The notes under the pieces: generated by a model
What the model was told of the DNA's origin: nothing
Databases searched by the model: none
Seen by the model: the letters and a program-made list of their open reading frames with translations, nothing else
Part shown: in pieces, positions 1,058-25,069 of the stretch
How the letters are laid out: every line of letters begins with the position of its first letter
How positions within the stretch are numbered: the first letter of the stretch is position 1
Program-made: the position numbers and the translations under genes
DNA from: Amoebidium appalachense
Taxonomy: Eukaryota > Protista > Ichthyosporea
Reading direction: 5' to 3'
Assembly: GCA_963693365.1 (NCBI GenBank)
Contig: CAVNZM010000019.1
Coordinates: 71,272 to 135,271 of the forward strand
Length of the DNA: 64,000 nucleotides

Positions 1058-3442
1058 TTAAATGGAACTCGTCCATGACCCATCGCTCACAAACAACACG
1101 GCGCCATTGTCCCTGCGCACCACAGCAATCAGCACTCCCGCGGTGCTTGCTGCTGTGCCGTTATTGGCCACGAAACTAACGACGTTTCCAAAGGGCTGTA
1201 GGGTAGCATTGATCTTGGGGTAGGAGGTGGTCGTCCAGCCACCGACTACCACTCCGAGCTTAATGCCGTTCACACTCACTTGCATCGTCTTGTCGCACAG
1301 CGCATGAATCACAACATCAAGGGGGGAGCTCCCGTTGTCGTAGGTTTTGTAGCCGTACGTCCAGCTGGGCATACAACCCAGATGCGCGTTAGGCACGGAC
1401 CAGATCCACTTTGCGACAGTGGTCACAAACCCCGATGCCGAGCCCCAGGGCGACATGGGGTACGTGCCAAGTTCAACAGCCCATCTCCGAATGTGATAGC
1501 CGTTCCATTCGCACAGGACTCCTTGGTTCCGGTAGGCCTCTGGAACATCAGGCTCCATGATATATGTTTGCTGCGTACTGTAAGTCCAGGCGGAAATACC
1601 GGGTGGATTTGTCCAGGCCTGCAACGGCCACGCTGCCACCGTCTTGCGCATATAGCAGTAGCCATAGACACCGCCTACATTGACGACGGGCGCAAAGCCA
1701 AATTGCCGACACCCCGAGGTGGCCTCTGCACGTGCCATGCATTGCTGCGGGCTTGCGTATCCGAAATTGCTGGCATCTGTCCAGTCGTTGAATGTGTTGC
1801 TGGTGCTGTGGTCGGCCAGCTGGTCAAACACGTACCAGCGCGAGCGTGCATACGGCATGTAGACGTACCACCCCGACCAGTTGTTCCAGCGCCATGGCAC
1901 ACACGAGTTGACAAGTGTGGTAGACACGTAGCTCGAGGTGTTTGTCGCTGCGCCCGGCATGGTCTTGGTCAAAAGATCCGCCCTCACCACCACAGATTCT
2001 GCCGACCGCACCCCATTGGGGACCATGACATCGTTTGTGTTGATGTCACCAGACACACAGTTAAGATTGGGCGCACTGCTGGTGGTTTCGTAGCAAACCT
2101 TTGTGTAACCCTTTGTGTCTGCGTACGCGACTATTGCCGCCCAATGGTTTGTTCCAGCTGGGTTGGATACCGAGGCACCCGCCGAAAAAGTTCTCCTTGC
2201 CAGCTGTACCCAGGGGGCTCGGGTGGTCTGCGGCACAATGCACACGTAGTCCCAACTCCCGCAGTCAAGCATGCGTGTCCACCTGTCCTGCGACGACTGC
2301 ACCTCGGCAAACTTGCTGGGGTCGTACCGTCCGAACGCGTTGCTGTACTCGCAGTAGATCAGGTACAGCGGCGTGCGGCTCCCTGACATGCTTGCACACG
2401 TTACGGCCACGGCCCCGGCAGCCACACTTCTGATCTGGGGCCGCCGGCACGCCACGAAGCCCGGCTTTGGGACTAGGTAGAAGAATACGGACGCCGTTAT
2501 CTGACGGGACTCGCCTTCGGGTTTATCAACGAAATCGGATGTGGACATGTCTAAGGTTCCGACCCCGTAGACAGCCACCGGCTCGGTGTTGTTCTTGCTC
2601 ACTATCTTGCATGGCATCAGCCCGTGCTCCTTAGTCACACAGAAGCCCCCCCACACCGGTCCATACGCGTCGCACTGGAACATCACGGCATTGCGCGGTG
2701 GCACCGCCCGGCGCACCAGCGTGTAGGTCTCAAACTCCACCTCGTTGCACGCCAGCCGCCGCACGTCCCGCCCGATGGCTTCGGGATCCATGCAGTGCAG
2801 CGCCACGTTGCGCACGCCCACCTCGCTGTAGCTGCTGCCCGTCTGTGCGCCGATGCACACGTAGCTGCTGCTGGGCGACACGGACGTCGTCACAGCCGTG
2901 CTTGTGACGGTCTTTGTGGCTGCCCCGTGCACGTACGTCACCCGCTGGTCCCGGACCACGTCAATCACAACTGGCGTCCAGGCCCCCGTCGTCGTGTACG
3001 TGGAGTCGAGATCCACGGACTGCGTGAGCGTCTCGGTGCTCAGCGTACCGGCCTGGCCGTCCATAGTCAGCCGAAGGTCCACGTTGGTGCTTCCACTGCT
3101 CGATGCGTGCCCCAGAACGGGACTCCACACGGCCGCCCATATCTTGGTTCCCGGCAGCGCCGTGAAGCGCTTGACCCGCACCTCGAAGCTGAGCGTAAAC
3201 CGGCGGCCCGCATGCAGGGGCCAGAACACGTAGCCCAGCTGGCTGGCCGTGCCCGGGGTCAGCCGGATCTCCCCCCCTGTCTTGTCCAAGTACGCACATC
3301 CTCCCAGGTGGCCTGTGGCCGGGGCCTGCCAGCCCGTGGCGGCCCACACGTCCGGGGTCTCCCAGACGAGGCACCGCGATCCCTGCTGGCTGGTGGGCAG
3401 CCACGCAATGCGAGCTGTAAGGGCACTCACACGGTCGCCCAT
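1058..3442 (-). CDS. Lectin-like multidomain protein, paralog 1 (L-type lectin-like N-term, PAN/apple domain, CBM67-like C-term)
   Basis: Start MGDRVSALTARI matches paralogs; GGCAY...EIRLT...QLGYVFW; PAN-like QCMARAEATSGCRQFGF...CYMRK; C-term AKWIW...VNG...AGVL...VSDGSW. Confidence 0.7.
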   Translation of the reverse strand: MGDRVSALTARIAWLPTSQQGSRCLVWETPDVWAATGWQAPATGHLGGCAYLDKTGGEIRLTPGTASQLGYVFWPLHAGRRFTLSFEVRVKRFTALPGTKIWAAVWSPVLGHASSSGSTNVDLRLTMDGQAGTLSTETLTQSVDLDSTYTTTGAWTPVVIDVVRDQRVTYVHGAATKTVTSTAVTTSVSPSSSYVCIGAQTGSSYSEVGVRNVALHCMDPEAIGRDVRRLACNEVEFETYTLVRRAVPPRNAVMFQCDAYGPVWGGFCVTKEHGLMPCKIVSKNNTEPVAVYGVGTLDMSTSDFVDKPEGESRQITASVFFYLVPKPGFVACRRPQIRSVAAGAVAVTCASMSGSRTPLYLIYCEYSNAFGRYDPSKFAEVQSSQDRWTRMLDCGSWDYVCIVPQTTRAPWVQLARRTFSAGASVSNPAGTNHWAAIVAYADTKGYTKVCYETTSSAPNLNCVSGDINTNDVMVPNGVRSAESVVVRADLLTKTMPGAATNTSSYVSTTLVNSCVPWRWNNWSGWYVYMPYARSRWYVFDQLADHSTSNTFNDWTDASNFGYASPQQCMARAEATSGCRQFGFAPVVNVGGVYGYCYMRKTVAAWPLQAWTNPPGISAWTYSTQQTYIMEPDVPEAYRNQGVLCEWNGYHIRRWAVELGTYPMSPWGSASGFVTTVAKWIWSVPNAHLGCMPSWTYGYKTYDNGSSPLDVVIHALCDKTMQVSVNGIKLGVVVGGWTTTSYPKINATLQPFGNVVSFVANNGTAASTAGVLIAVVRRDNGAVLFVSDGSWTSSI

Positions 3443-3465
3443 AATGCAGTCCCCCACAAAATGTG

Positions 3466-5067
3466 CTAGGCGAGCATGGCCATGTTCAGGTACCAGCCAC
3501 AGGCAGCGTGCCAGCGCCACACCAGCAGGTTGGTGTCCGTGTAGTCGGCGTTGGTGTACGCCGTTGGCGATACACGCGGCTTGGCGTTCTCGAACACGTC
3601 GGTGCGGATGATGCACGCCCCGTCCCGCCACGTGGTCTTGGCCGGCCACGACGGGGCCGGCTTGAAGTAGTACCCCCGCCCCAGTGCCGGCTTGTACGAG
3701 TAGTCCACGGCCATGAGCGTGACCCCTTTTGCGGCCGCCATGCGCTCGCCCTCCGCCACGATCTCGTCCACGTCCAGGCCCGTGAAGGTAGTCGCCGGTG
3801 ACCACTCACCACCTACAGAACTTGTGCAGACGCCTCGTGGGAGCGTCACGTACCGCCCCTTGGTGGTCTGCGGGACGACGCACACGTACTCCCACGACCC
3901 GTCGTCTGTAAGCGTGATAGCGCCCATGTATTCACACAGGATCGAACCCCCCGGCTCGTACGAGCCGTACGTGAACGTGTCCGTGCGTTCCAGAGAGATG
4001 AGGTACAGGGCGCCACGCTCTTGCGCTGCCCGTGGTTTGCCGATGTACAGCGCGCTATTGGGCGGTCCCCCGATCTGCCGCCTGCGCGTTGCAACAAACC
4101 CGGCCTTGGGCACCACATAGAAGAACGTTGTGCTTGAGTAGGACGCCCCACCCAGGGCGTAGTACGCCGTCATCGGGCTTCCGATCGCCGAAATCTTGCA
4201 CGGCACCATGCCGTGTGCTGATGCGCAGAACCCCGCATAGATCGGCCCCAGATTAACATGTACCCCAAACGTCACGGCCCCCGGCGGCGGTCGGCTCGCA
4301 CGCACAAGCGTGTGCGTGGGAAACTCGAGCTCGTTGATGGCCGTCAGCGCGGCGTCGCACCCGGGCGACGGCGTGTTGGTGGTGAGCGTGATGTTGCGCA
4401 CGGCGTGCTCGCACGAGAGCCCGCCCGTGCGTGCGCACAGTGAGAGGATGGTCGCGCGCGTGGGGGCAGGCTGTGTGGGTGTCTGGGTGTGCAGCTGCGT
4501 CCAGCCCGCTCCCTTGTCCAGCAGCACCTGCAGCCCGTTGGTCTTGGCGGCAAACCGCACCATGCACGTCCACCACACCCCGTTGGTGCCGGCTCGGGGG
4601 TACGTGGCTGTGCCCAGCACCGTGGCGCCAAAGTACACCCGCGACTGCGCCTCGTACTCGTCAAACGTCAGCCGGTACGCCCCGGGCTGCAGCAGCTCGT
4701 CTTCCCCCTGGTATCGCTGGCCGGAGTACCGTTGCCCCAAGCTAAACCAGTTGGCCCACAAGGCATCGGCACCGCTGGTCGTGCCGTCGCCGGCCCTGAA
4801 CTGGAAAGCAAGCTGGAAGTTGTCCACGGGTGGCATTACCCACACCACATAGCCGTGCTGGCTGCTCTGCTTGTCCGTCAGCCGGATCTCCCCCCCCGCC
4901 CTGTTCATGTACGCAGTCCCCCCCAGCACGCCCGCCGCCGGCGCCACCCACGCCGTGCCCTGCTGCGTGGCGCTCCACGTTTCGGCGTTCTCAAGCACCA
5001 GCGTCGTCGTGTGCCGCCCTGCCAGCTTGTCGATTCGCGCGTCCAGCGTCGCCAGCCGGTCCGCCAT
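3466..5067 (-). CDS. Lectin-like protein, paralog 2
   Basis: MADRLATLDARI; GGTAYMNRAGGEIRLT...QHGYVVW; shared FFYVVPKAGFVA, VCVVPQ and WRW..GWY motifs. Confidence 0.7.
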   Translation of the reverse strand: MADRLATLDARIDKLAGRHTTTLVLENAETWSATQQGTAWVAPAAGVLGGTAYMNRAGGEIRLTDKQSSQHGYVVWVMPPVDNFQLAFQFRAGDGTTSGADALWANWFSLGQRYSGQRYQGEDELLQPGAYRLTFDEYEAQSRVYFGATVLGTATYPRAGTNGVWWTCMVRFAAKTNGLQVLLDKGAGWTQLHTQTPTQPAPTRATILSLCARTGGLSCEHAVRNITLTTNTPSPGCDAALTAINELEFPTHTLVRASRPPPGAVTFGVHVNLGPIYAGFCASAHGMVPCKISAIGSPMTAYYALGGASYSSTTFFYVVPKAGFVATRRRQIGGPPNSALYIGKPRAAQERGALYLISLERTDTFTYGSYEPGGSILCEYMGAITLTDDGSWEYVCVVPQTTKGRYVTLPRGVCTSSVGGEWSPATTFTGLDVDEIVAEGERMAAAKGVTLMAVDYSYKPALGRGYYFKPAPSWPAKTTWRDGACIIRTDVFENAKPRVSPTAYTNADYTDTNLLVWRWHAACGWYLNMAMLA

Positions 5068-5100
5068 TGCCCACTGCGCACATTTGTTTTGCCCTACTCA

Positions 5101-6729
5101 ATGGCGGACCGCCTCGCCCGCCTCACACAGCGCATCCTCAACATCGAGGGCTCGCCCCCCCGATGTGTGCTCCAGGAGACCCCCGAGAACTGGGCCCGCA
5201 CCAACTGGGCGTGCCCCACCACCGGCACGCTCGGCGGCAGCGCCTACATGAACAGGGCCAATGCCGAGATCCGCCTCACCAACCGCGCCGCCAACCAGAC
5301 CGGCTACGTGTACTGGCCTGTGTGCCCCGGGCAGCGCTTCGTGCTGTCCTTCAAGTTCAGGACCGGCGCCGGGTCCATCCCGCAGAAGGAGGCCCTGTAC
5401 GTGTCGTGGAACCAGGCCAACTCGTTCCCAAACGGAGCCGTCGCCGGCAAGGAGTTCCGCCTGCAGTTCAATCCGGGGTCCGGGAAGGTCGTGTCCTACC
5501 AGCCCAACGGCTCGTTCAACTTCCTGGGATGGCCGGCCAACGGCACCAACGGCGCCTGGCAGACGTGCGTCATAAGCATCGCCCCGGACGCCGGCTACGT
5601 GTTCTGTTCGCTCGGCCGGCTGCGCCTGACATACACACTGGCCGACCTGACCCCCTCATCCACCGCCAGTACCTTTCTCTCGCTGTGCGCCTACACATCC
5701 ACGGCCGACTACACCGAGCACGCCGTCAAGGACATCGAGCTGTGGACGTACGACCTGGGCGTGCCCGGCCGCGACGCCCGCTCGCTCGTGCTCAACGAGA
5801 TCGACGGGCCCGGCTACCGCTGGGTCCGCAGCCCGCGCGTGCCGCCCGGGGCCGTGACGTTTGGGATAATCTACAAGGAGGGTCCTACCTTCGCAGCTTT
5901 GTGCTTCACGTGGGCGCACGGCTCGAAATTTGGAACGGTCCGATGTGTCAATGTTACCACCGGGTCCCTTGCAGGCACGTATGCAGCACCAGGTGTCGCA
6001 GGCATGCCCTCTCTGTACCGCAACATGTTCCAAACGGACAACTTCTTCTACCTTGTCCCCAAGCCGGGCTTTGTCGCCGTTGAGAGGAGGTACCCGAGCT
6101 TCGGATCGGATAGCTGGACCGCCCCACCAGGCGCCCTCTGCACGGAGTCCCTCAGTTGGCTCTCGAACACACCCGTTCCCGCCTATCTTGTCAGCGACGG
6201 GAGAAGCGATTCCTATATTTTCGGAGGCGCCATCAACAACGAGAACATACTATTGGACGTCGGCATGGATGAGATAAGCGTATCGTACGGCCACAAAACA
6301 AAGTTTGTCTGTGTTGTCCCTCAGGCTACAAAGTACAGATACGTGGCACTGCCTTATAATGTGGCAATCAACACCGCAAAAACCAAGCAGTCGGTCAGGG
6401 ATAGTACGGAACCGTTCTGGGACACAAACGAAATGGGGCGCCTCATGGAGGCCGCCAACCCAGGCGTTTCGTGTGCGAAATTTGATTTTACAAGCGACAA
6501 CAATGAACCTCTGGTGTCCTCCTTCTACACGGGCTCCCCGTGGCCCGCACAAACGACTGGCAACTACTACACGGGAAGCATCGTGCGCCTGGACGACCTC
6601 GAGGGCGCAAAGCCAGATGGCACCGTCGACGCGCAGCAGTACAAGGACGTGGACTACTATGACGCCACACGGAACCTGACGTGGCGCTGGTGCGACTGGG
6701 CCGGCTGGTATCTCAACATAAATGCGTGA
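5101..6729 (+). CDS. Lectin-like protein, paralog 3
   Basis: True start ATG 5101 (MADRLARLTQRI); GGSAYMNRANAEIRLT...QTGYVYW; same shared motifs. Confidence 0.7.
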   Translation: MADRLARLTQRILNIEGSPPRCVLQETPENWARTNWACPTTGTLGGSAYMNRANAEIRLTNRAANQTGYVYWPVCPGQRFVLSFKFRTGAGSIPQKEALYVSWNQANSFPNGAVAGKEFRLQFNPGSGKVVSYQPNGSFNFLGWPANGTNGAWQTCVISIAPDAGYVFCSLGRLRLTYTLADLTPSSTASTFLSLCAYTSTADYTEHAVKDIELWTYDLGVPGRDARSLVLNEIDGPGYRWVRSPRVPPGAVTFGIIYKEGPTFAALCFTWAHGSKFGTVRCVNVTTGSLAGTYAAPGVAGMPSLYRNMFQTDNFFYLVPKPGFVAVERRYPSFGSDSWTAPPGALCTESLSWLSNTPVPAYLVSDGRSDSYIFGGAINNENILLDVGMDEISVSYGHKTKFVCVVPQATKYRYVALPYNVAINTAKTKQSVRDSTEPFWDTNEMGRLMEAANPGVSCAKFDFTSDNNEPLVSSFYTGSPWPAQTTGNYYTGSIVRLDDLEGAKPDGTVDAQQYKDVDYYDATRNLTWRWCDWAGWYLNINA

Positions 6730-6741: not shown

Positions 6742-8089
6742 TTACTCAAGCCGGGCGACCAGCGCCTCGAGCGCCGACGTCAGCCGGTCCACATGGTCGT
6801 TGATGGCCAGCACGGCCTCGGCGATCGTCGCCTTGCCCGCGGCGGGCCCCACGGTCGGCGCGGCCCACGTGCCCACGTTGGCCGGCGGGGCGCTCGCGTT
6901 CAGCGCGAGCACGGCGGCTGAGATGGTGGTTTTGGTGGCGGCGGGGCCCGTGGTGGGGGTGGTGTAGGTGCCGACCACGCTGGTGTTTGCTTTGGTGTTC
7001 AACTGCGTATCGCAGTAACTTTTGTCGGCCTTCGCAGCCAGCGTAGTGCCTTGAGTGTGGACGGTTGTTTGGAGTGCCTGAACGTGTGTTGGTTGGGTGT
7101 TTGGAGTGCCTGCACAGTGCTTGAGTCTGCTTTCGCCGCTAGGGTTGTGCCGTGTGTCTGCACGGTGCTCTGCAAAGCATCCACAATGGTAGCTTCCGCT
7201 TTTTTGGCTAGAAGGCCGTCTACGTAACTTGAGTCTGCTTTCGCCGCTAGGGTTGTGCCGTGTGTCTGCACGGTGCTCTGCAAAGCATCCACAATGGTGG
7301 CTTCCGCTTTTTGGCTAGAAGGCCGTCTACGTAACTTGAGTCTGCTTTCGCCGCTAGGGTTGTGCCGTGTGTCTGCACGGTGCTCTGCAAAGCATCCACA
7401 ATGGTGGCTTCCGCTTTTTTGGCTAGAAGGCCGTCTACGTAAACGGTTCTGTTAGTGAAATCGGTTCTTAATGTTGCAACCACGGCCTTGGATTCCCTAA
7501 GGTCGAGTTCGCCATCGACATAGGCGGTCCTATCAGTAAAGTTGTTTCTGAGCTTCCCCACCACGGCCTTGGTCTCCCTGTTCGACAATTCGCTGTCTAC
7601 ATAGACAGTCCGTTCGGTGAAGTCACTGCGGAGCTGGGCCACCACACTCTTCTCTTCTTTTAGAAGGACTTGCTGTTCGATGTTTGTGCACCGGTCACCA
7701 AACTCCTGCGTGATGCCATCGAGAGTTGTGTCGATCGTGATCTTATCTGCTTTCTGGTCTAGGCGCTCCGCCACACTAACTTCATCTGCTTTTGTATTAA
7801 CCACCTCGGCAAGCGCTGCCAGTGCAGTCTTCTCAGCCTTGAGAGCCAGACTAGCTTGATGGCTTCTCAATGTTGCGTTGATTTCATTCACCGTGGACAA
7901 CACGTTATCGTCCTTGACCGTCAGCGCGCTGTTCAGGACCCCCACCGCCGCGCCCAGCGTCAGCCCCGCGCACGGCCCCTCAACCGGAACGGAGTAGGGG
8001 AGGACTTGGGCCACGCACGCTGCCGCATCCTCGAGGTTCAGGGTGCCCGTGTCGAATGAGATGGAGTGGGGCACGAGTGCCTGCTCCAT
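6742..8089 (-). CDS. Fibre-like coiled-coil protein with KAD/KAE repeats (frameshifted across three ORFs)
   Basis: ORFs 7247-8146, 6999-7292 and 6742-7002 join into one repeat protein (KADSSYVDGLLAKKAEATIVDALQSTVQTHGTTLAA units). Confidence 0.6.
7121..7443. repeat. Three near-identical 108-bp tandem repeats (36-aa units)
   Basis: Units start near 7121, 7229 and 7336; the middle unit is 1 nt shorter in a T-run. Confidence 0.9.
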
Positions 8090-8499: not shown

Positions 8500-9330
8500 T
8501 CAAAAAAGCAGTGTCGACGCCAGCTCGTTTGAGAACGACTCGCGCTGCCTGAGGTCGCGCTGTGTGCTGATGGACGGGAGGTTGTCCAACCCGGCGCTGT
8601 GGATCGCTGGGTCGGGTCGTAGCTGAAGGTTGCCGTTCTTCTTGTACACGGCGGGTGCCGCCACGTTGCGGGGACGTGTCGTGGCGGCAAGCACCTCCTG
8701 CGGCGTCAGCTTCGCCACGCTCAGCCTCTCACGCGGCCGCATCTCGCTGCCCGTGAAGAGGCCCGTGCCCCGGATCTGTGAGATCGCGTCCATGGTGGAG
8801 TTGCTGACGTTTGGCCCTGCCCGATGCACGGTCTGCACAAGGTTGGGGTGCACAGCCGGACGTGCGGGCGCGCCGATGAGCGCTGACGGTGTGCCTGAGG
8901 GAACCACCGAAGCCTGCTGCACAGCCCGCGTCGAAGGAGGCGCCTGCGGTACCGTAACTGGCCCGTTGCCCGTGTTGACGACCGTGCCCCCGCCGTCGGC
9001 CGTGGCGTACTCGTCGTAGCCGAGCACGTACTCGTCCTCCTCGTCTCCAAAGTACTCCTGGTTGCCCATGGCGACGGTATCGTCGTCGAACCCCCTAGCA
9101 CTGTCCCGGTATGCAAGTGCCAGGTCTCGGTCAAATGGGCTGTCGGAGGTTTGCAGCCCCCACTGCATGCCAGGGTCGTTGTTGCCTCCGGGCTGTTGCC
9201 CCGGGTCACTGTCCTCAGGCTGGAACGTAGGTGCTGTTGGCCATGCCGACGCCCTCTTGTTGTAGTAGTAGAAGCCAGCTGCGATGATGCCCATGTACAG
9301 CAGCGTGCGGTCCATGGATCCAGAATTCAT
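8500..9330 (-). CDS. Membrane-anchored protein resembling NCLDV minor capsid protein P11
   Basis: N-terminal TM (LLYMGIIAAGFYYY); C-term KKNGNLQLRPDPAI...ST.RDL resembles the N.N.QLR.(D/E)P motif. Confidence 0.5.
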   Translation of the reverse strand: MNSGSMDRTLLYMGIIAAGFYYYNKRASAWPTAPTFQPEDSDPGQQPGGNNDPGMQWGLQTSDSPFDRDLALAYRDSARGFDDDTVAMGNQEYFGDEEDEYVLGYDEYATADGGGTVVNTGNGPVTVPQAPPSTRAVQQASVVPSGTPSALIGAPARPAVHPNLVQTVHRAGPNVSNSTMDAISQIRGTGLFTGSEMRPRERLSVAKLTPQEVLAATTRPRNVAAPAVYKKNGNLQLRPDPAIHSAGLDNLPSISTQRDLRQRESFSNELASTLLF

Positions 9331-9418
9331 ACCGGTTGTATAGAAAAAAGCCCCAACCCCCGGGCCCCCAAGGGTATAAAAACAGCGTTGCCGGCACGTT
9401 CAGCGTCAGTCCCCCACC

Positions 9419-10204
9419 ATGCTCGTCAAGACCGTGCAAGTCAACACGTTCAAATGCGCCATCGACAGCGTCAAGGACATCCTCGGCGAGGTGACCGTGC
9501 TGTTCAGTGGGAAGGAGGGCTTTGTTCTGCCCGCAGTTGACAATGCAAAGAAGGCCTACGTCTACATGAAGCTGCACCCCGACAAGTTTGAGATCTTCGA
9601 CGTACCCAACGATGTGACCGCCACGTTCGAGATCCAGAACCTGTACAAGATCGTCAAGAACGCCACCGCCCACCGCTTCAACAGCATCGCATTCACCGCC
9701 ACGGACGACACCCTGCAGGTCAAGATGGAGACCACCGATGACAGCAGCTGCATCGTGTACAACATGACCCTGGTCAAGGAGGTGCGGCAAATCCTCGACG
9801 CCCCATCGCTCGATTACGACTGTGTCTTTGTCATCGACGCCCAGGAGCTTGCGCGCTACCTGAGGGACATCCAGGCCGTGTCCAATGTCGTGAAGATCAC
9901 TGTCGCGGATCGCACGCTCCGGCTGCGTGCGCTGGGCGCGCTGGGGAAGTGCAGGATAGACATCCCCGAAAAGGGAGAGGACGCGCTGAAGATCAGAAGG
10001 GGAAAAGCCACGGGTGTGGAGTTCAAGAAGGTCCCGATCGAGAAGGTCAAGGCGCAGTTCATGGTCAAGTATCTCAGCGCGTTCTGCAAGGGCGCGTGCG
10101 TGAACAGCAACGTCAGGATACACATGTCCAGTAACAAGCTCATCCGATTCGAGTACGCCGTCAGTGACTTAGGCGTCCTAGCCTTCCATCTGTGCCCATT
10201 GTGA
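9419..10204 (+). CDS. PCNA: Proliferating cell nuclear antigen (sliding clamp)
   Basis: 261 aa; FKCAIDSVKDIL, AVDNAK.AYVYMKL, FMVKYLSAFCK, RFEY...LGVLAFHLCP; TATAAAA at about 9375. Confidence 0.92.
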   Translation: MLVKTVQVNTFKCAIDSVKDILGEVTVLFSGKEGFVLPAVDNAKKAYVYMKLHPDKFEIFDVPNDVTATFEIQNLYKIVKNATAHRFNSIAFTATDDTLQVKMETTDDSSCIVYNMTLVKEVRQILDAPSLDYDCVFVIDAQELARYLRDIQAVSNVVKITVADRTLRLRALGALGKCRIDIPEKGEDALKIRRGKATGVEFKKVPIEKVKAQFMVKYLSAFCKGACVNSNVRIHMSSNKLIRFEYAVSDLGVLAFHLCPL

Positions 10205-10223
10205 GATTTTCCACGCCTGGGGC

Positions 10224-13200
10224 ATGGACCGGTCCCGTAGACCGGGGTATGTTGTGGTGGACACTCAGTCCAATAAAGTCGTGGCCGATGCCTGGCCAAG
10301 TGCCGAGAATCCTGGCCGCTTCTTTCTAGAATCCCGAGCCGATGACCCTTTCCCCCTCGCACAGCTGGTGCAGGACCCGCGTCACCCGTCATACAACACC
10401 GGCACCGATAGGCAGGCCAGGGATGGCAATCTGAACCTGCGATTCCGTGTCCGTGATCCCATGTACGCACCCGCCCCGCCTACACAAACCCCACCGTCCC
10501 GATCCGAGACCTGGTGGGAGGAGCTTGCAGGCAAGGACCTGACCCAAGAACCCCTCGATGATGCCCGTGTAACTGCCGAGAACGTTCAGGGGATACTGAG
10601 CAAGGCGTATGTTCGCACAAGCACGCCGCGCCTGGTCAAGCTCGAGGGTGTCACGGACTCTAGGGGCCACGCGCTTTTCGCCAAGGAGGTGGAAAATCGG
10701 AAGACACGCCACCCCACGACACCGGACCATCCCGAGCGCATCCGAATGGCGTATGCCGCCCTTGCGGAGGCCCAGCGCATAGCTGGAAAAAACGTAAGGG
10801 ATTCCCAGAAAGCAAAGGAGGGCAAAGCGCCGGAAGACTCCGATGATCCCGGAGAGCCCAACATGCTCGAGGCGCTCGCCCTGATGGTGCCCGGGCTGCC
10901 ACGGCCTGAGTTTGTGGAAGGAGTCCACCGCGAGGACGACGAACGGGCCTACCCCTACAAGCACGCGCTCCAGACACTCATCGCCGAGCGTGCAAAGCTG
11001 GCCAAGGAGCTGCGCGCAGCCGGTACCGATCGTGCGACCATGCGGCAGGCCCTCAAGGAACTGACCATGAGTGTTGCGCGCGACCTTTCAGGGCAGGAGT
11101 ACTACGGCCGTGTCCAGCACATCCTGCGGGCCCTTGCCGATGACCAGGATCTTGACCTTCGAGATGGTAAGCGTATTCACCTCGGGTCACACGCCCCCCC
11201 CGGAGCCACCAGCATCGATGATGAAAGGGAGATGCACAAACGCTTCTACGCCGATCTCGGCCGGCCTGAGCTCTCAGAAACCCGTTTCGATGACGCCCGC
11301 AGCCGTCTTGTTGCCAATGCCGTTTCGACCCGCCGAAGAGCAGAGGCGCCCACACCCACCACTGCCGACTCCACCGCCCAGGAACTTGCCACGGTTGCAC
11401 ATGCGCTGGGCGTGAGCCCGGACAACGCTCGCACGGCCATCGCCGCCTGGGCCGACCGGAAGCGGGAGCAGCTTGCGGGCCTGTACACCGCCGGGAGGCC
11501 CCGGTCGCCGGGCACCGCCGTCAACACAACATCCGACATTACGGACTCGGTGTGCGGGATCGTGTTTGTGGATCCGCACATCTCCAAGCACTTCCGGCCG
11601 ATGACGTACCTGGTCGTCAGGCTCGACCGCTTTGTCCCGCGCGCAATGCTCGTGGCGATGCACGTCATCGAGCACACGGGCAGGCCCGTTGTGTACAAGT
11701 CTAAGGCCACGGTCGCGGGGTTCTACCCACCCCAGCCCGGGGGAAACCCCCCTCTGGCGCTGTACCAGCTGGAGCGCCAGCGGCTGATGCCCTTGGAGTC
11801 CACAGGTGATCTTCTCAACGTCGACGCGCCTGACAGCCCTTCGCCTGTCCGCTCCGTGGTCTATGAACCCCTGCCATCCCGAAGCACCGTGGCATCGAAA
11901 GGCTCCTTCACGCTGAGGCTCCTCCCCGACAACAAGGTCGCCCTGGGGGCAGAGGAGGCCCTGTGGGTGGTGGGCCCCGGGGGCGCCCGCCTGCTGCTGG
12001 TGCCGGGGGGGCGTTGGTACGGGGAGGAACCCCTCGCACAGCCCCTGCCCGCAGACGTCGAAGTGCACACGCTGAGAACTGCCGAACAGCCCGTAGGACG
12101 CCTGGGCCGTGGGAAGGCATACACGCAGGACATCCGCGATGCCATCCTGCTTGCGCACCTGCGGGACGAGAGGCTCACGGACACCGCACAGAGGCTCAAG
12201 GTCAGCACGCAGACCGTGCGGCGGGTAATAGCACGTGCCCTCAAGCACGGCGAGTTCAGCAGCCGGCACGGCACCAACCTCGCAAGGGCCCATGAGAAAT
12301 CCACCAAGCTGACGGACACACAGAAGATCGTGCTCTACGAGCTCACGACCAAGGTACCCAACCTGACCAGCGAGAAGCTCATGGCCGCCTACAACGCACT
12401 GCCTGGCCTGCCCGAATCCGAGCGCATGAACGTGTCGGTGTCCACGCTCAACAAGTGGCGCAAGCGGCTTGGGCTGACGTACCGCCGTGGGGAGGGCGAC
12501 CCGACAAACACCTTTGTAAGGTCCGTGGCTGCCGCCACCCAGTACTTTGAGGTCGAGCGCTTGCCACACCTGCAGGACAACCGCCAGAATCTGCTTTTCA
12601 TCGACGAGGCCTCCGTGTACCTGGATGAGACCCCTGGCCGCGTGTGGGGGCACCGCGGCTCGCATCACAAAACCCCCAAGCCCAAGCTGCGCGGCATCGG
12701 CACAAAGCTGCTGATTTCCGTGGGGTTCCCCAAGGCGGACAACGATGGAAACATGCGGGCCGTGGTCAACTACCTGATTCTCAGTCCTCGGCCATCCGAC
12801 GACCCGCTGTTCAACTACCGGCCTCTCGCCCCCCACGGCCGCGAGCCCCAAGCCGAGCTTTCCAACGAAAGCCTGGTGCCTGACGAGCTTGACGGTCGTG
12901 CGTTCTACGTGTTCTTGGAGTACGTCCTGGGGGCCGACCCACGCACGAACGGCGCAATCCTGTGCATGGACAACGCCCCCGTGCACAACACCAAGGAAAA
13001 CTTGCCGGACATCAGGCAGCTCGCCGTGAGCAAGCATTGGCGCTTCCAGTGGCTCCCCCCCTACAACTCCAAGTACAACGTCGCCGAGTTGGCCATCGGC
13101 TTTGTCAAGCAGCACGTGCGCTCCCACTACCCCAAGACCTACTACCACCTTCGCAAGCTGATCCAGGACGGCTGCTCACTGATCGAGCGGAACCCGGACT

Positions 13201-14636
13201 ACATCGTCAACTGGATGAAGAAGTGCGGCTATGGTCTGCCCATCAACATCACCCGCAACGCCAACATCCGCAAGGACCGCATGGGCTTCTTTGCACCAGA
13301 AGGCACCATCTACACTCGCGTTGTCAAGATCACAAACCCCCAGGACAAACCCCTCAAGTGGCCCGATAACCCGAACTGGCCACGGTCCCAGCTGCGCCGC
13401 CTGCGCAACAGCATACTGGAGAACCCCGCGTGCTTTATCAGCCACGCCGGCGCCCTGTGGCGGCTGACCGAAACGGGACGCACGGCCGTCATCGATGCCC
13501 TCAACAGGGGGCACGCCACCACCGACCTGGCGCGTGCGTACACGCGCACCGCCCCCACCACCGGAGATCCCCGATGGCAGCTGTTCAGCACGGACCCAAA
13601 GGCCTGGCAGCGGAAGGAGCTGGTAGCCACACAGCGTCCTGCCAAGCAGAAGCCTGTGAAGCCCCAGGCCCCAGCCACCCCTGTGCTTCCAGAGGTCCTC
13701 ACGTCCAATCCCGCGGTCCTCCAGGCCGCCCGAGACAGGGCGGATAAAGTGCTGGCGGCCCTCAACGAGAAACTGAAGGCCGAACTGCACGAGAGCATGA
13801 AAGTCCGCGATGATCTGGACCATCTGCGGAGCAAAGCGGGCCGCGTGAGTGCTACGGACAACATAAACCCTATGTTTGCGGCCATATACGACAAGCGTGT
13901 CAGCACAAGAGCAAAAGAAGCCGCGAAGGAGAAGGAAAAGGAAAAGGTCCCCGACCCGCCCCAATCTGCGCCCGACCCGAACCAGGCCATCCACCAGCGC
14001 GAGTACTTGAACCCTCAGGTCCCTATGGACCTGGATTCTTACAACCCCCTGACCCCCGCGAGTTTGGACTCTTACAACCCCATGACCCCCATGAGTTTGG
14101 ACCCGCCGACGCCTGCACCGCCTCCTCGATCTCCCCGGAAGCGTACGCGGTCTGAAGACCAGGATGAGGTCTCCGGCCCGGGCGGTGGGGCCAAGCGGTC
14201 GCGCACTGAGCAGCCCCCGGAAGGTCAAAGCGTTTTGGGTACAGCCTACAGCCAGATGTGGTCTCCAGGGAGAGCTCATCCCGGACCGAGGCGTATCCTG
14301 CCACGGCCCGCAATCCCGCTGCAGCCACTGTCCTTTGTCCCATCCACGAACACGTTGGGTTCGCCCGGGACTCCCTTCCCGCACATGCCATCCCCCGAGC
14401 AGCTCCGGTTTAACACACAGGCGCAGGCAATTTCCGCCAGGCCCCCGCTGAGCCATGCCTACCTGATACCGCCCCCGCCCTCGCCGTTCCCCAACCCGCA
14501 GTCGCAGATGTCCACGCCCGTAAATAATTTCACCTGGCACTATGCCATTCGCCAAGCGCAAGCTCAAACGGTTCGGCCTCCTCCGCCTGACTGGCAACCG
14601 CAACCTCCAGCGCATTTTCAGCGCCGTGATGCGTAA
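10224..14636 (+). CDS. 1470-aa protein containing an IS630/Tc1-mariner-type HTH + DDE transposase/integrase domain
   Basis: HTH (TAQRLKVSTQTVRRVI; VSVSTLNKWRKRLGLTYRR); catalytic FIDEAS, CMDNAPVH, WLPPYNSKYNVAE (DD38E); long unique N-term and Pro-rich C-term. Confidence 0.85.
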   Translation: MDRSRRPGYVVVDTQSNKVVADAWPSAENPGRFFLESRADDPFPLAQLVQDPRHPSYNTGTDRQARDGNLNLRFRVRDPMYAPAPPTQTPPSRSETWWEELAGKDLTQEPLDDARVTAENVQGILSKAYVRTSTPRLVKLEGVTDSRGHALFAKEVENRKTRHPTTPDHPERIRMAYAALAEAQRIAGKNVRDSQKAKEGKAPEDSDDPGEPNMLEALALMVPGLPRPEFVEGVHREDDERAYPYKHALQTLIAERAKLAKELRAAGTDRATMRQALKELTMSVARDLSGQEYYGRVQHILRALADDQDLDLRDGKRIHLGSHAPPGATSIDDEREMHKRFYADLGRPELSETRFDDARSRLVANAVSTRRRAEAPTPTTADSTAQELATVAHALGVSPDNARTAIAAWADRKREQLAGLYTAGRPRSPGTAVNTTSDITDSVCGIVFVDPHISKHFRPMTYLVVRLDRFVPRAMLVAMHVIEHTGRPVVYKSKATVAGFYPPQPGGNPPLALYQLERQRLMPLESTGDLLNVDAPDSPSPVRSVVYEPLPSRSTVASKGSFTLRLLPDNKVALGAEEALWVVGPGGARLLLVPGGRWYGEEPLAQPLPADVEVHTLRTAEQPVGRLGRGKAYTQDIRDAILLAHLRDERLTDTAQRLKVSTQTVRRVIARALKHGEFSSRHGTNLARAHEKSTKLTDTQKIVLYELTTKVPNLTSEKLMAAYNALPGLPESERMNVSVSTLNKWRKRLGLTYRRGEGDPTNTFVRSVAAATQYFEVERLPHLQDNRQNLLFIDEASVYLDETPGRVWGHRGSHHKTPKPKLRGIGTKLLISVGFPKADNDGNMRAVVNYLILSPRPSDDPLFNYRPLAPHGREPQAELSNESLVPDELDGRAFYVFLEYVLGADPRTNGAILCMDNAPVHNTKENLPDIRQLAVSKHWRFQWLPPYNSKYNVAELAIGFVKQHVRSHYPKTYYHLRKLIQDGCSLIERNPDYIVNWMKKCGYGLPINITRNANIRKDRMGFFAPEGTIYTRVVKITNPQDKPLKWPDNPNWPRSQLRRLRNSILENPACFISHAGALWRLTETGRTAVIDALNRGHATTDLARAYTRTAPTTGDPRWQLFSTDPKAWQRKELVATQRPAKQKPVKPQAPATPVLPEVLTSNPAVLQAARDRADKVLAALNEKLKAELHESMKVRDDLDHLRSKAGRVSATDNINPMFAAIYDKRVSTRAKEAAKEKEKEKVPDPPQSAPDPNQAIHQREYLNPQVPMDLDSYNPLTPASLDSYNPMTPMSLDPPTPAPPPRSPRKRTRSEDQDEVSGPGGGAKRSRTEQPPEGQSVLGTAYSQMWSPGRAHPGPRRILPRPAIPLQPLSFVPSTNTLGSPGTPFPHMPSPEQLRFNTQAQAISARPPLSHAYLIPPPPSPFPNPQSQMSTPVNNFTWHYAIRQAQAQTVRPPPPDWQPQPPAHFQRRDA

Positions 14637-14786
14637 GTATAAAAGCCGCAGCAACGTGGACAACGCCACCACTCGCAGACTGGAGGCCCAAGTGACACGC
14701 CGCTACAGAAACAAGCCGTTCTCTCGTCACGATATCGACGTGTTTGTAGGTTCGAGGTTGTGACCCGATTATTGACGCGTGCTGGT

Positions 14787-15674
14787 ATGGTGGAGGGGAG
14801 GCTGGTGAACGTGCGAAAGGAAATGATCTGCTACATCGCCAGGCGCTACGGAGGCTTTGCCCTGCCCACGCACAAGAGGCACGCAGAACTGGTTTCGATT
14901 GTACAGGCCGTGCCGGGCCTGCGCCTGCTCTTCCGGCGCGTGTTCCGTGTCTTCGACTTCCTGCGCAGGCGCCCACCCAACCTCACCAACGACACCGACC
15001 CTTTCTCTCTGGAGCCGCTGGCCCGGGACTGCTTCAAGTACACGCGCGCTGGCCACGTGTACGGATGCGATGCGGCCACCCTGGCCGACTACATCAGCAA
15101 GACCGGCAACCTCCGTGACCCGTTTGCCAACACCCCCTTCAGCGCAGCCGAGCTCGCACGCCTGGACCAGTGCACCGGGTTTGTGTTTGCGCTGTGTGTG
15201 CGTCTGCGCACCGAGAACCTGACGCGCACCAAGATGGCCGCCGTCATCGAGCACGACGCCATGGTGCTCGTTGACCGGATGCTGGCGGACCTGGTCAGCC
15301 GCATTTCCGAGCAGCTGCAGCGCCTGCACGCCGCAGACCCCTACTCAAACGTGTCCGTCGAGGCGCACATTGCGCTTTCGCGGCTGTTTGACGAGTTCTG
15401 CAGCATCTGCAACCAGGGCAGCCGCTTCCAGCTCGAGGTGCAGACCAACCTGCGCCGGCTGCAGGAGATGCTCGACGAGGCCGCCACCACCCACCCATCC
15501 CCCACGGTGACCTGGCTGCGCAGCGAGACCGTGCGCGTGCAGGGCCAGCTGCTTGACCGCGGTATGCCGCCCCCGCAGCAGGTCGCGGAGGGCGTGTGGA
15601 TCCAGGGCCGGCAAAACGAGGTCATTGTCCATGTGGCTTCGGGCACTCTCGCAGATTTTGCACGGCGCTTGTAG
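14787..15674 (+). CDS. NCLDV U-box/RING-like protein
   Basis: NDTDPFSLEPL...YGCDAATLADYISKTG..RDPFANTPF resembles U-box-like domains of giant-virus proteins; start uncertain. Confidence 0.55.
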   Translation: MVEGRLVNVRKEMICYIARRYGGFALPTHKRHAELVSIVQAVPGLRLLFRRVFRVFDFLRRRPPNLTNDTDPFSLEPLARDCFKYTRAGHVYGCDAATLADYISKTGNLRDPFANTPFSAAELARLDQCTGFVFALCVRLRTENLTRTKMAAVIEHDAMVLVDRMLADLVSRISEQLQRLHAADPYSNVSVEAHIALSRLFDEFCSICNQGSRFQLEVQTNLRRLQEMLDEAATTHPSPTVTWLRSETVRVQGQLLDRGMPPPQQVAEGVWIQGRQNEVIVHVASGTLADFARRL

Positions 15675-15676
15675 CA

Positions 15677-15934
15677 ATGAGTCTGTACAACTCGGTCAAC
15701 TTCAACGTCGACAACCCCCTGGACGCCCTGTTCCCGCCCATCACCACCGACGTGCAGCGGCATCCAGGCCGCGTGGCGCGCACACACGGTGGTCCAGGCA
15801 TAGGCTACCTACGTGGGGCTACCCAGCCCGGGGGGCGCTGGTTCTCGCGTGACCCCGTGCTCAGGCGCCTTGACTTCATCGTGCTGCTGCTGCTGCTGAT
15901 CCTGGCGCTGGAAATCACAAAGGGGGGTTTGTAG
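15677..15934 (+). CDS. Small protein with C-terminal TM helix
   Basis: ATG 15677 with upstream ATTTT motif; FIVLLLLLILAL. Confidence 0.55.
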   Translation: MSLYNSVNFNVDNPLDALFPPITTDVQRHPGRVARTHGGPGIGYLRGATQPGGRWFSRDPVLRRLDFIVLLLLLILALEITKGGL

Positions 15935-16145: not shown

Positions 16146-17486
16146 ATGGCACGGTACAACCCCCCGCCCTATTCCACTCCCGTCATCGGGCCCACCTGGA
16201 AGCCCGCTCCTGGCAATGAGGCGCGTGTCGACACCTCGTCCGTGCCCGACTGGCCCGGGGTGCGCCCGTTCTACGCGCCCGACGGGCAGAGGGTGCTCAC
16301 GTGGCTCAGCAAGTTCGACGGGCACGTGTTTTTCAACGCCGGGTACTCGGCGGGCAAGGGGGCTGAGGAGGCGGGGGTGAAGAAGAATCCCATGGATTGG
16401 AAGAAGGACAACACACGTAAAATCGCGGATGTGGTATCATTGATAAACAAAGAGAGGACAGTAGGACAGCTCCTACTCTCCTCTGATTGGCTGATTCGTT
16501 CAACTTTTGCTAACATCAAGAAGCTCCCTACAGTTTCTCAACCCGATAACTCTGTTGTATGTGCATTTGCAACTCATGGCCTGACACCCACCCTCGAGAT
16601 GTTTCGTGGCACCTGGATGGCTTTCGAGCTGACCGCCCCCTTTCTGCGCTACTGCTTTCCCGACCTGCGCCAGTTCTGGGACGGGGTGATGGTCAAGTCG
16701 CACCTGGGCCAGATGGACTTCTTCCCCGAGTTGATTCGCATTGCCGACCAGGGACGAGGTGATGGATGCAGGACTCGGTCCGTGACCATCGACATGAACG
16801 AGGGGTCCCGGAAGCGTGAGCGAGAAGAGGACGCCGAGTCGGCAGTGGTCAAACGAAGCACACTGGATGCCATGCTCGATCCGGATCGCTGGTTCAAACC
16901 CGGGGTTGATTTTGACACGGCCATGAAGCAGCTGCACCACTTTGTGGTTACTGTACATCGCGATTTCTGTACCAATGACAACCCCGAAGCGCTCGCCGCT
17001 GTGAAGCGCGCCGAGGAGGCTGAGCGTACCGAGAAAGCCAAACAGGACACAATACAGCGGGGCATCGACTCCACGCTTGCCATGGTCAAGGCTGTGCGCG
17101 AGATGAAGGCCGAGCTCAAGGGACTGGACGTGCACTTTGTGGCCTGGCGGCAGCTGAACTTCGAGTGGTCTCTCAAGGCGGCGGCAGGGGCGTGTGTGTA
17201 CGCACTGCACATCGACGGCTACATCAAGATTGGACACACAGGGAACTCTCTATTCGAACGCTACAAGTATGACCTCTGGTCTCACGACATGAAGGAGCTT
17301 ATCATCCTGTGCATGCCCCACCGCAACAAGAAGGAGGCCGAGCAGTTCGAGAAACTGGTGCAGAACCAACTGAAGCCGGTGAGGTGTGCAGTTGGGAACA
17401 AGCGGGAGATGTTTGCCGCGGACTATGTACGCGTCTCAAATGCGTTCAAGGAAGTTTACGGAGAGGATGATATTCGGCTGGTGTGA
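16146..17486 (+). CDS. KilA-N domain protein with C-terminal GIY-YIG/T5orf172-like domain
   Basis: DGHVFFNAG...RGTWMAFELTAPFLRYCFPDL (KilA-N); CVYAL..YIKIGHT...ER...EKLV...REMF; TATA at about 16106. Confidence 0.75.
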   Translation: MARYNPPPYSTPVIGPTWKPAPGNEARVDTSSVPDWPGVRPFYAPDGQRVLTWLSKFDGHVFFNAGYSAGKGAEEAGVKKNPMDWKKDNTRKIADVVSLINKERTVGQLLLSSDWLIRSTFANIKKLPTVSQPDNSVVCAFATHGLTPTLEMFRGTWMAFELTAPFLRYCFPDLRQFWDGVMVKSHLGQMDFFPELIRIADQGRGDGCRTRSVTIDMNEGSRKREREEDAESAVVKRSTLDAMLDPDRWFKPGVDFDTAMKQLHHFVVTVHRDFCTNDNPEALAAVKRAEEAERTEKAKQDTIQRGIDSTLAMVKAVREMKAELKGLDVHFVAWRQLNFEWSLKAAAGACVYALHIDGYIKIGHTGNSLFERYKYDLWSHDMKELIILCMPHRNKKEAEQFEKLVQNQLKPVRCAVGNKREMFAADYVRVSNAFKEVYGEDDIRLV

Positions 17487-22668: not shown

Positions 22669-23247
22669 TCACCGTGCCGTCAGGAACCCCATGATGCTGG
22701 CCTCCGTCTGCCGTGGGGGTGCGGGAAGCGGAGCGGGGCGCCTGGGGCCCTCCTTGATGGCGTGTCGGGACACCACGTAGAGCTCCTCCAGCACGAACGG
22801 GCAGCTGGACAGCTGCACGGGATGCGCCCCCTTCTGTGAAGCCGCACGGAACTCCTCGATGTCCATGTTGCCCCCGAACAGCTTGAGCACCGACCGTGGA
22901 GGGGCGGGGTTCGGCCACGTGTTCCAGCTTCCCCCCATTCTTCGGTACATCATCGACAGCAAAGAGGGGGCACGGGCCTTGACGTATCCGGGCATCACCT
23001 TCAGATGTGCCCGCGCGCACGCGAAAGAACAAAACACGTTGGGTGTACAATAAAACAGTTCCTTTTCCGCTTTGAATCGTATTGGTATGGCAACCAGCGG
23101 CCCCGTGAACGGGTGGCAGCAGTAGTGGCACACACTTTGCGTCAGGTTGACGGGGTTCACGGACACAACAGTGCCCGGAGAAACGCGTTGGTCGGGCAGG
23201 GGGGGGGCGATGTGGTTGGGGTTGGGGTAGTCGGGGTAGAGAGCCAT
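22669..23247 (-). CDS. VLTF2-like late transcription factor (zinc finger)
   Basis: CHYCCHPF...IP...FCSFACARAH...PAPPRSVLKLFGGNMDIEEFR, the NCLDV VLTF2-family signature. Confidence 0.88.
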   Translation of the reverse strand: MALYPDYPNPNHIAPPLPDQRVSPGTVVSVNPVNLTQSVCHYCCHPFTGPLVAIPIRFKAEKELFYCTPNVFCSFACARAHLKVMPGYVKARAPSLLSMMYRRMGGSWNTWPNPAPPRSVLKLFGGNMDIEEFRAASQKGAHPVQLSSCPFVLEELYVVSRHAIKEGPRRPAPLPAPPRQTEASIMGFLTAR

Positions 23248-23842: not shown

Positions 23843-24379
23843 CTAAAGAAAGATCAATTGCATCTCGGGGTGTGAGACATAAAGACCAACCGGAGCTTCG
23901 GACGGCAGGTTGATGTACCTGTCCATACGGTCGGCAAACCAGCGCGGGGTGTCGGGTGACGGGCTACCGAAGGAGCAGATGCTTTCCTGTACGGGATACC
24001 TGATGAACGGGCCACCGAGCCTTGCCGACATCGTGTTCACCAGGTCCTCCTGACGGCGGATGTCGCTCCACATGTCTACCTCCATTGCAAGGCTGCCGGT
24101 TTCATGAGCACCCTCCCCACAGTATCTGTACTGCTGCCACTCATCCATGGTCTCGGGCGTGCACAGCGGGTACCTCGCGCATGTATCGTCCCGTGTTCCC
24201 ACAATGTTGGCGGGGATGTCCACATACGTCCGTGAGCGAAGCACGTCCCTCGTGTAGCCCTCCCTCTCTGCGGCGTAGAGTCTCATCGACGACATTACAT
24301 AGCGGGCGGATTGCGTGGCTGAAGCGTGAATGTGGGCCACAAATAAATCTCTCGCACCAACATGGAGATACCATGCCAT
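23843..24379 (-). CDS. Hypothetical protein
   Basis: ORF filling the gap between neighbours; start uncertain. Confidence 0.4.
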   Translation of the reverse strand: MAWYLHVGARDLFVAHIHASATQSARYVMSSMRLYAAEREGYTRDVLRSRTYVDIPANIVGTRDDTCARYPLCTPETMDEWQQYRYCGEGAHETGSLAMEVDMWSDIRRQEDLVNTMSARLGGPFIRYPVQESICSFGSPSPDTPRWFADRMDRYINLPSEAPVGLYVSHPEMQLIFL

Positions 24380-25069
24380 GCGCAGAACAACGGCGTGCTG
24401 AACTGCCTGCCCGAGGTGCTACCGTGCTACTACCCCGACACGGCGTTTCCGTCCCCTGACGCGCTTTTGCCCCGGGAAAAGTGCAAGTCCTACAATGCCT
24501 ACACATACCGCCTGCTCAAACGCATGTCTACGCTTGCCATAAACAAACACGCCCTGGACTACCTCAACATGTTCCAGACCGCACTACAGGAAAAGATCGG
24601 CATGTGCATCGTACACATGCTGGGCGACGCACGCCACGTCACCGTCAAGCTCAGGCACGTGGTCGGGGCCGCCCGTGTGTTCCTTTCGGACAGCGTGGTG
24701 CGTGGCATGTTGACGCGCATTCAGGAGAGCCTCGCCCTGTACGAGGACAACAACCTGACTGTCGGCACGCGCACCACCATTACGCGCAGGTGCAAGTTGG
24801 TGTTCCCCCCATCACGATTTCGCAACACCCTTCTCGCTCTTGACCCTACCGTCAAGTGGCGCGTCAGTGTCATCAGTGGCATCGCCTGCGCGTGCATAAT
24901 CCAATCCTTCACCGAGTGCGTCCTAACCGAAGCCCTGGCGCTGTGCCGCAAATCCAACCGCAAGCGCGTCATGACGGAGCACCTGCAGGACGCCTTCTAC
25001 CCCGCGCTCACCGAGACCAGCCGCTTGCTGGAACAGCACATTCACAACCGCACGGTGGCCCCTTTGTAG
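24362..25069 (+). CDS. Histone H2B-H2A doublet
   Basis: H2B-like YTYRLLKR..TLAINKHALDYLNMF...TVKLRHVVGAARVFL, then H2A-like TRRCKLVFPPSRFR...ACIIQSFTECVLTEALALCRKSNRKRVMTEHLQDA. Confidence 0.8.
   Translation: MEIPCHAQNNGVLNCLPEVLPCYYPDTAFPSPDALLPREKCKSYNAYTYRLLKRMSTLAINKHALDYLNMFQTALQEKIGMCIVHMLGDARHVTVKLRHVVGAARVFLSDSVVRGMLTRIQESLALYEDNNLTVGTRTTITRRCKLVFPPSRFRNTLLALDPTVKWRVSVISGIACACIIQSFTECVLTEALALCRKSNRKRVMTEHLQDAFYPALTETSRLLEQHIHNRTVAPL

Follow-up and report, generated by a model that had tools for sequence, protein, structure and literature searches.

The stretch of DNA analysed here, referred to below as the window, comprises 64,000 nucleotides of a contig from the ichthyosporean Amoebidium appalachense (CAVNZM010000019.1, positions 71,272 to 135,271) and has a dense, intron-poor gene layout of the giant-virus type. 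The subject of this report is an open reading frame (ORF) of 1470 amino acids on its forward strand (positions 10224-14636), which carries a DDE transposase module of the IS630/Tc1/mariner type in its middle. Its length is far beyond chance, as the longest ORF in each of 30 base shuffles of positions 1-45 kb reached 157-258 amino acids. The upstream neighbor is a PCNA gene (9419-10204, forward strand, 261 amino acids) with matches to Pfam PCNA_N and PCNA_C (E 1.7e-19 for the latter). The gap between the PCNA stop and the start of the ORF is 19 bp, in agreement with a first-pass annotation of the locus that had been made by inspecting the letters. Self-comparison of the 64-kb window revealed no second copy of the DDE gene.

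The coordinates of the protein's parts and of the flanking features are collected in Table 1. Pfam HTH_23, a helix-turn-helix (HTH) family, matches residues 641-676 (E 1.3e-5), and DDE_3 (PF13358) matches residues 888-972 (E 4.6e-10, 40 bits against a cutoff of 28.6). The catalytic triad consists of D794, D916 and E955 (codons at 12603, 12969 and 13086), with 121 residues between D794 and D916 and 38 between D916 and E955. Together, these matches and the triad bear out the intact HTH and D-D-38-E module that the first-pass annotation had described in the middle of the ORF.

Table 1. Parts of the 1470-residue protein and flanking features (window coordinates).
Feature	Position	Strand	Basis or remark
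1470-aa ORF: N-terminal extension, HTH, DD38E catalytic domain, C-terminal extension	10224..14636	+	
N-terminal extension, residues 1-629	10224..12110	+	homologous across the family
Bipartite helix-turn-helix DNA-binding region, ~residues 630-750	12111..12473	+	Pfam HTH_23, Tc3 fold match
RNase H-fold catalytic domain	12579..13232	+	Pfam DDE_3, triad, predicted fold
Small alpha/beta domain after the catalytic domain, ~residues 1050-1130	13371..13613	+	pLDDT blocks 80-95
Proline-rich, poorly conserved C-terminal tail	13911..14633	+	
ATTTT motif, ending 13 nt before the ATG, inside the 19-bp gap	10206-10210	+	motif scan
Downstream ORF, 295 aa	14787..15674	+	without Pfam family, without TnpB/Fanzor match

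A structural model of residues 621-1149, built with a 50-sequence alignment, had a mean predicted local distance difference test score (pLDDT) of 83.3 and a predicted template-modeling score (pTM) of 0.63. The HTH region forms two helical subdomains in this model, and the bipartite DNA-binding domain of Tc3 (1u78) could be aligned to it over 103 residues (Z 6.8, root-mean-square deviation (rmsd) 6.4). Foldseek returned Mos1 as the top match of the model (E 1.1e-7), with Sleeping Beauty next. An independent structure aligner favored Metnase (Z 15.9, rmsd 2.5, 184 residues), Mos1 (Z 15.6-15.7) and Sleeping Beauty (Z 15.2), whereas retroviral integrases scored lower (Z at most 12.1). The catalytic core is predicted to adopt a Tc1/mariner fold. 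Giant-virus transposases, among them an 805-residue Sylvanvirus protein (TM-score 0.41 on the query), are its best matches among viral models. The small domain that follows the core is confidently predicted and has no family match, the fold search having barely covered it. An AlphaFold structure prediction of the N-terminal ~630 residues, one of the checks named in the first-pass annotation, reached a pLDDT of 37 and a pTM of 0.24 with 6 sequences. A fold search with this extension returned generic helices only (best Z 8.2), its Pfam matches were no better than E 0.065, an atlas search gave no match, and PHROGs proved uninformative.

Relatives of the protein were collected by a word-based search of long proteins, followed by an exhaustive search of 50% representatives. 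The first search yielded P0002 (1403 amino acids, 46% identity) and P0003 (1432 amino acids, 39%). The second gave 77 matches, of which four stand apart at E 1e-78 to 1e-89, the next match lying at 1e-12: P0009 (1619 amino acids), P0010 (1390), P0011 (1533) and P0012 (738, with its N-terminal end cut). The family as we define it thus comprises the query, five full-length relatives of 1390-1619 residues and the fragment P0012. The D-D-E triad is kept in all seven members, with a D-E spacing of 38-41 and an interval of 121-164 residues between the first two aspartates. An HTH lies at residue 560-630 in each of the six full-length proteins, such that every full-length member possesses both the HTH and the full triad. 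The cores of these six proteins are 37-58% identical, and retention of the triad despite this divergence is in keeping with prolonged selection for catalytic activity. An RNase H-fold D-D-E domain (by Pfam, the triad in 7/7 members and the predicted fold) and a bipartite HTH ahead of it, the two protein features expected of an IS630/Tc1/mariner transposase, are therefore both present.

All full-length relatives also share an N-terminal extension of ~560-630 residues and the position of the module behind it. The extensions of P0003, P0009, P0010 and P0011 are 27-33% identical to one another. The N-terminus of the query is 24% identical to that of P0002 over 444 columns (E 8.7e-10, with the database size set to 1e8). 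Direct BLAST of the query N-terminus against the other four gave no match at E 0.01, and only a profile links them: the N-terminal profile of P0003, P0009, P0010 and P0011 scored the query at 29.1 bits, versus at most 3.3 bits for 400 shuffles.

This shared architecture bears directly on the simplest alternative, namely that a recent in-frame insertion of an ordinary Tc1/IS630 transposon (~350 amino acids) into a viral gene produced a chance fusion. The location of the module in mid-ORF would suit such an event, as would the G+C content at third codon positions (GC3), which is 0.80-0.88 over residues 451-1200 and 0.67-0.73 at the ends of the ORF. However, five full-length relatives carry both extensions and the module at the same position, the family holds together as a single long-stemmed clade well separated from ordinary transposases (E 1e-78 versus 1e-12 for the next match), and no terminal inverted repeats (TIRs) surround the module. 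A chance fusion is largely refuted by these observations, and we consider it very improbable.

The clade was recovered in two quick trees, a DDE phylogeny having also been among the checks named beforehand. Of the 73 non-family matches, the 49 with at least 250 residues were used; the second tree omitted three long-branch rows, and neither contained named Tc1/mariner reference transposases. Both trees place the family in one clade (support 100, long stem) and join it to a group of 12-13 proteins of 474-889 amino acids, with Shimodaira-Hasegawa-like approximate likelihood ratio test (SH-aLRT) values of 94 and 96. A chromodomain was found in 8 of the 13 proteins of this group that were scanned, and the stretch between their first two aspartates is enlarged. 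These DDE and chromodomain proteins (P0013, P0015, P0020 and others) differ from the family in lacking the long N-terminal extension, and the chromodomain is absent from all seven family members. They are likely the sister clade on this sequence comparison, the alternative being long-branch attraction, which may create such a link because no named Tc1/mariner reference anchors the trees. Eleven short metagenomic loci of the sister group were recovered. Two of the 11 have a ResT/TelK protelomerase neighbor (L003:2854-3744, minus strand; L006:743-1870, minus strand) and two an HMG-box neighbor (L002:2218-2535, minus strand; L003:2370-2774, minus strand). Three loci (L002, L005 and L007) end in TG-rich repeats, and no clear TIRs were found in the six of the 11 loci that were examined for them. 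Such chromodomain-DDE/protelomerase loci are possibly an undescribed eukaryotic mobile element.

The only named members are fragments in the assemblies of Daphnia sinensis, where the gene is annotated in pieces on a 183-kb contig (around GHT06_003798-003800), and Daphnia pulex. P0009 comes from a 22-kb contig. A scan of viral contigs with family, sister-clade and PCNA alignments gave no usable match; one locus from it (L012, E 2e-4) was dropped, as it resembles a phage tail region. None of 126 candidate stretches in a metagenome scan with the family held up, and tblastn against phage records found no match. An atlas search with P0009 returned only ordinary DDE_3 clusters at 0.88-0.89, which we treat as leads only. 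Among proteins of 30-770 amino acids, orthologues without the DDE domain were absent from the 7998 candidates scored, a weak test given the limited number of candidates. A search with PCNA gave 12 relatives of 44-49% identity, for which no link to the Daphnia contigs emerged.

A mobile transposon would be expected to carry TIRs closely flanking its transposase gene. The flanks of the gene contain no exact inverted repeat of at least 10 nt, and the best inverted repeat around the DDE module is 11 nt, a length reached by 60 of 200 random window pairs. The absence of visible TIRs around gene or module, as first annotated, thus stands at the level of exact matches, a test that strongly decayed TIRs could escape.

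We next consider the same region in other sequencing runs. Twenty of the 24 listed runs hold at least half of the words of positions 9400-15700; they belong to four named studies, one sample of which is possibly the source of the window DNA, and ten of the rows name no study. Positions 8749-15865 are spanned in run X1 by three overlapping contigs that show 0-2 differences; their depth of 83-102 is flat across PCNA, the DDE gene and the downstream neighbor. Runs X1 and X14 also carry diverged contigs at lower depth. One of these (9740-10423, 102 differences, ~85% identity) crosses the junction between PCNA and the gene, and joints at 10196-10271 (X1 and X14) and 10306-12500 (X1) keep the same gene order. 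Among the joints shown (15 of 18, from four runs), none skips the DDE gene and no empty site appears. Adjacency to PCNA in other copies, proposed as a check by the first-pass annotation, is therefore upheld in contigs of ~85% identity. Because the gene is present as a single copy in the window, lies at flat depth in X1, retains its junction in a diverged contig and is skipped by no joint, it behaves as a fixed gene. By comparison, the T5orf172-domain gene at 16146-17486 is represented in X1 and X14 by numerous diverged variants and joints, which sets it apart from the DDE gene, and is probably a multi-copy family.

These data can be set against the proposal that the protein serves, as its transposase, a large selfish element that resides in giant-virus genomes, perhaps with cargo genes and with distant or decayed ends, and that moves itself and not the virus. 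Giant viruses do carry IS630-Tc1-mariner selfish elements (10.1101/2024.09.03.611062; this and the other papers cited are drawn on for the portions available to us), the top viral fold matches of the model are giant-virus transposases, and the likely sister clade sits in multi-gene loci with protelomerase (2/11) and HMG-box (2/11) neighbors. Selection for catalysis would be expected in such an element too. On the other hand, there is one copy in 64 kb, packed tightly against PCNA and without TIRs, the same junction recurs in diverged copies with no empty site in the joints shown, contig depth in X1 is flat across the gene and its neighbors, and no TnpB/Fanzor match was found among the 50 ORFs scanned with Pfam. 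Within the window we therefore see neither the adjacent TnpB/Fanzor gene nor the near-identical copies that mark a Fanzor-carrying IS630 element. A selfish element is, on balance, an unlikely explanation. The view that this is a resident viral gene and not an ordinary transposon, as first annotated, is sustained by the architecture shared with five full-length relatives, the lack of local TIRs, the single window copy and the conserved PCNA junction.

Contig depth also varies along the window. At or near the gene it is 83-102 in X1 and ~1200-1400 in X14, while the longest contigs over 50210-52440 have a depth of 4-12 in X1 and 231-728 in X14. Depth not being equivalent to copy number, this is only a hint at amplification of the core region with respect to the repeat-rich part, or at differences in that region between variants. 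The depth contrast in X1, a run with only 2.6 Mb of contigs in total, and the co-occurrence of diverged copies of ~85% identity hint at an amplified virus beside rarer relatives.

The repeat-rich part extends from 45.7 kb on; here, genes are interspersed with microsatellites and discontinuous inverted repeats. The segment 47348-48432 is repeated in inverted orientation at 52578-53243, 55186-55409 and 55752-55979 as microsatellite-capped duplicate modules of 87-99% identity, one of which includes a small gene. As candidate terminal repeats, the inverted repeats of 47-56 kb are short (187-670 nt by BLAST) and discontinuous, with no recognisable host junction. Between them, at 49243-50075, perfect inverted arms of 226 nt flank an AT-rich core of 381 nt; almost all (TG)n runs lie to the left of this structure and most (CA)n runs to its right. 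A foldback element, an origin and a terminal junction are all conceivable identities for it.

The remaining genes point to a viral setting. A Pox_A32 match (A32-like ATPase, E 0.0014) and a DUF5906 match (E 8.7e-6) are both under the curated cutoffs, and further genes encode histone-fold, ligase-domain, PL14 lyase, cytosine methylase, KilA-N, T5orf172 and F-box-like proteins, several of these matches also falling below cutoff. The ORF at 22669-23247, which has no Pfam match, we take by eye to be VLTF2-like. Neither a double jelly-roll major capsid protein nor a family B DNA polymerase was found by Pfam among the 50 ORFs scanned. The window is likely to derive from Nucleocytoviricota, an assignment that is incomplete because several matches are sub-cutoff and those 50 ORFs include no capsid protein or polymerase.

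Several of these genes have features of their own. The DUF5906 helicase-like gene (38803-40483) is split over two consecutive ORFs that correspond to profile positions 1-59 and 79-114, reflecting either an intron or a break. The KilA-N-like gene region is duplicated in tandem (41840-42945 and 43884-44990, 88%, period ~2.04 kb). The histone-fold protein, a weak Pfam match, lies at 24362-25069, and the PL14 polysaccharide lyase at 25621-26580. The low GC3 (0.51) of the cytosine methylase (29505-30413) suggests that it was acquired separately. At the left end, three related ORFs (1058-6729; 794, 533 and 542 amino acids) have similar N-termini, with one weak L-type lectin match, and are possibly virion surface proteins; three tandem copies of ~108 nt follow at 7120-7442.

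Upstream sequences also tie the DDE gene to its surroundings. ATTTT occurs 13-17 nt before 7 of 30 hand-picked starts (638, 3442, 10224, 15677, 21453, 23785 and 29505), versus 26 of 1433 ATGs; three of the 30 starts were chosen after the motif scan, and the count without them is 4/27. The first-pass annotation had held that the ORF carries ATTTT at -13 as core genes do. The motif is indeed present and enriched over 13-17 nt, but only 2 of 30 starts have it at exactly -13, and ATTTT is missing upstream of both PCNA and the A32-like gene. PCNA instead has TATAAAA at -44, one of six starts among the 30 with TATAA[AG] at -34 to -47 (9419, 16146, 17567, 21994, 23247 and 28949). ATTTT may represent a promoter or initiator class, and the two non-overlapping motif classes are possibly early and late promoters. 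An upstream motif common to other window genes lends further support to a resident gene.

What would such a gene do? Since the protein keeps an HTH of the TIR-binding kind and no TIR is found near the gene, its binding site likely lies elsewhere, and the ends of the viral genome are the simplest candidates. We tentatively favor, as a distinctly possible reading of the sequence evidence, a long-resident and probably active transposase of a giant-virus lineage that likely integrates the viral genome with a TA duplication. On this view, the bipartite HTH would recognise inverted repeats that sit not around the gene itself but at the termini of the viral genome as a whole. Cleavage at these termini by the DDE core would be followed by their joining to host DNA, with TA, the target of other Tc1/mariner enzymes, as the probable insertion site. 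The conserved extensions might, speculatively, handle packaging, partner binding or target choice.

The same enzyme may instead have been domesticated for another job on DNA, such as processing of genome ends or concatemers, replication recombination, cleavage of host DNA, or DNA binding and regulation. The gene adjoins PCNA among replication-type genes, no integration signature was found, and the large conserved extensions are unlike those of transposases. The X1 depth of ~90 in only 2.6 Mb of contigs hints at an amplified and possibly free-replicating genome, and Metnase, a domesticated mariner, is among the top fold matches. However, domesticated copies often lose the HTH or the triad, whereas every full-length member of this family has kept a TIR-binding HTH and the full triad, and an amplified genome is compatible with a latent integrated phase. 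We regard this explanation as rather improbable.

Several points weigh against viral genome integration by this protein. Neither the stretches read nor the self-comparison revealed an element end, a TIR, a TA duplication or a host-virus junction, and even the integrated state of the window copy is hypothetical. The PCNA linkage was seen only at ~85% DNA identity, and no run carrying the region is on record as RNA; the one run guessed to be RNA had no contig on another stretch, which says nothing about expression either way. The six distant relatives, of which only the fragments in the two Daphnia assemblies carry names, are at most putatively viral, and the Daphnia contigs may come from the animal or from an organism living on it. 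The probable sister group, for its part, occupies small loci of several genes whose viral nature is hypothetical. In the Chlamydomonas virus, moreover, the IS630-Tc1-mariner genes are selfish passengers that do not match its 6-bp duplication (10.1101/2024.09.03.611062).

Like Mos1, Sleeping Beauty, Tc3 and other IS630/Tc1/mariner transposases, the protein combines a bipartite HTH with an RNase H-fold D-D-E domain behind it. It is unlike them in being ~4 times longer, in its D-D (121-164) and D-E (38-41) spacings, in its conserved N- and C-terminal extensions, and in its occurrence as a single copy with no TIRs around the gene. The endogenous giant virus of Chlamydomonas, a punuivirus, has TIRs and a 6-bp duplication, and its elements likewise place a Tc1/mariner-type gene within a giant-virus genome (10.1101/2024.09.03.611062). 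Those elements, however, occur in multiple copies, share >99% identity within each family and come together with Fanzor (10.1101/2024.09.03.611062), whereas the window gene is single, has no Fanzor neighbor and lies beside PCNA in diverged copies.

Large viruses that use a captured DDE transposase have precedents in nimaviruses and Teratorn. Sesarmid endogenous nimaviruses are large double-stranded DNA viruses that captured a cut-and-paste Ginger2-like DDE enzyme, their proposed integrase, and have 46-bp TIRs and (AT/TA)n targets (PMC10871703). They belong to another virus group, carry another DDE family and have visible TIRs (PMC10871703), whereas no ends were recognised for the present element. 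Teratorn is a fusion of piggyBac and a herpesvirus, and one subgroup has its transposase in mid-element and TIRs at the ends, which illustrates that such repeats can enclose an entire virus whose transposase is internal (PMC10175614). Its ends are established and its partners are piggyBac and a herpesvirus (PMC10175614), as opposed to Tc1/mariner and a Nucleocytoviricota-like virus here. Phaeovirus elements also have a conserved candidate integrase gene in a giant virus, but theirs, through which they are proposed to integrate, is a tyrosine recombinase, generally near an element end, with insertion at CC (PMC13236599). Giant-virus insertions in a protist relative of animals are enriched in recombinase, integrase and PCNA domains; the available text does not mention Tc1, and two of its supplement files are without the words 'DDE', 'transposase' and 'integrase' (PMC11244446). 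In the literature searched, most subscription papers being outside its scope, we found no published description of the family or mechanism.

How giant viruses enter host chromosomes is largely open. In the Chlamydomonas virus the integrating enzyme is unconfirmed, and the proposed punuivirus integrase is retroviral-like (10.1101/2024.09.03.611062). The gene described here offers a named candidate integrase with a clear prediction, namely that the viral genome should terminate in inverted repeats and show a TA duplication. It is possible, if somewhat doubtful, that we are dealing with a giant-virus lineage whose fixed, enlarged Tc1/mariner transposase integrates the entire genome at TA sites, a third and independently acquired system in Nucleocytoviricota, next to the phaeovirus tyrosine recombinase and the proposed punuivirus integrase, that would descend from an apparently undescribed clade of chromodomain-DDE elements. 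In that case, a mariner-type enzyme would be mobilizing DNA as large as a giant virus. Otherwise, there would still be an apparently undescribed family of intact DDE proteins of 1400-1600 amino acids and, related to it, a possible chromodomain-DDE/protelomerase element type.

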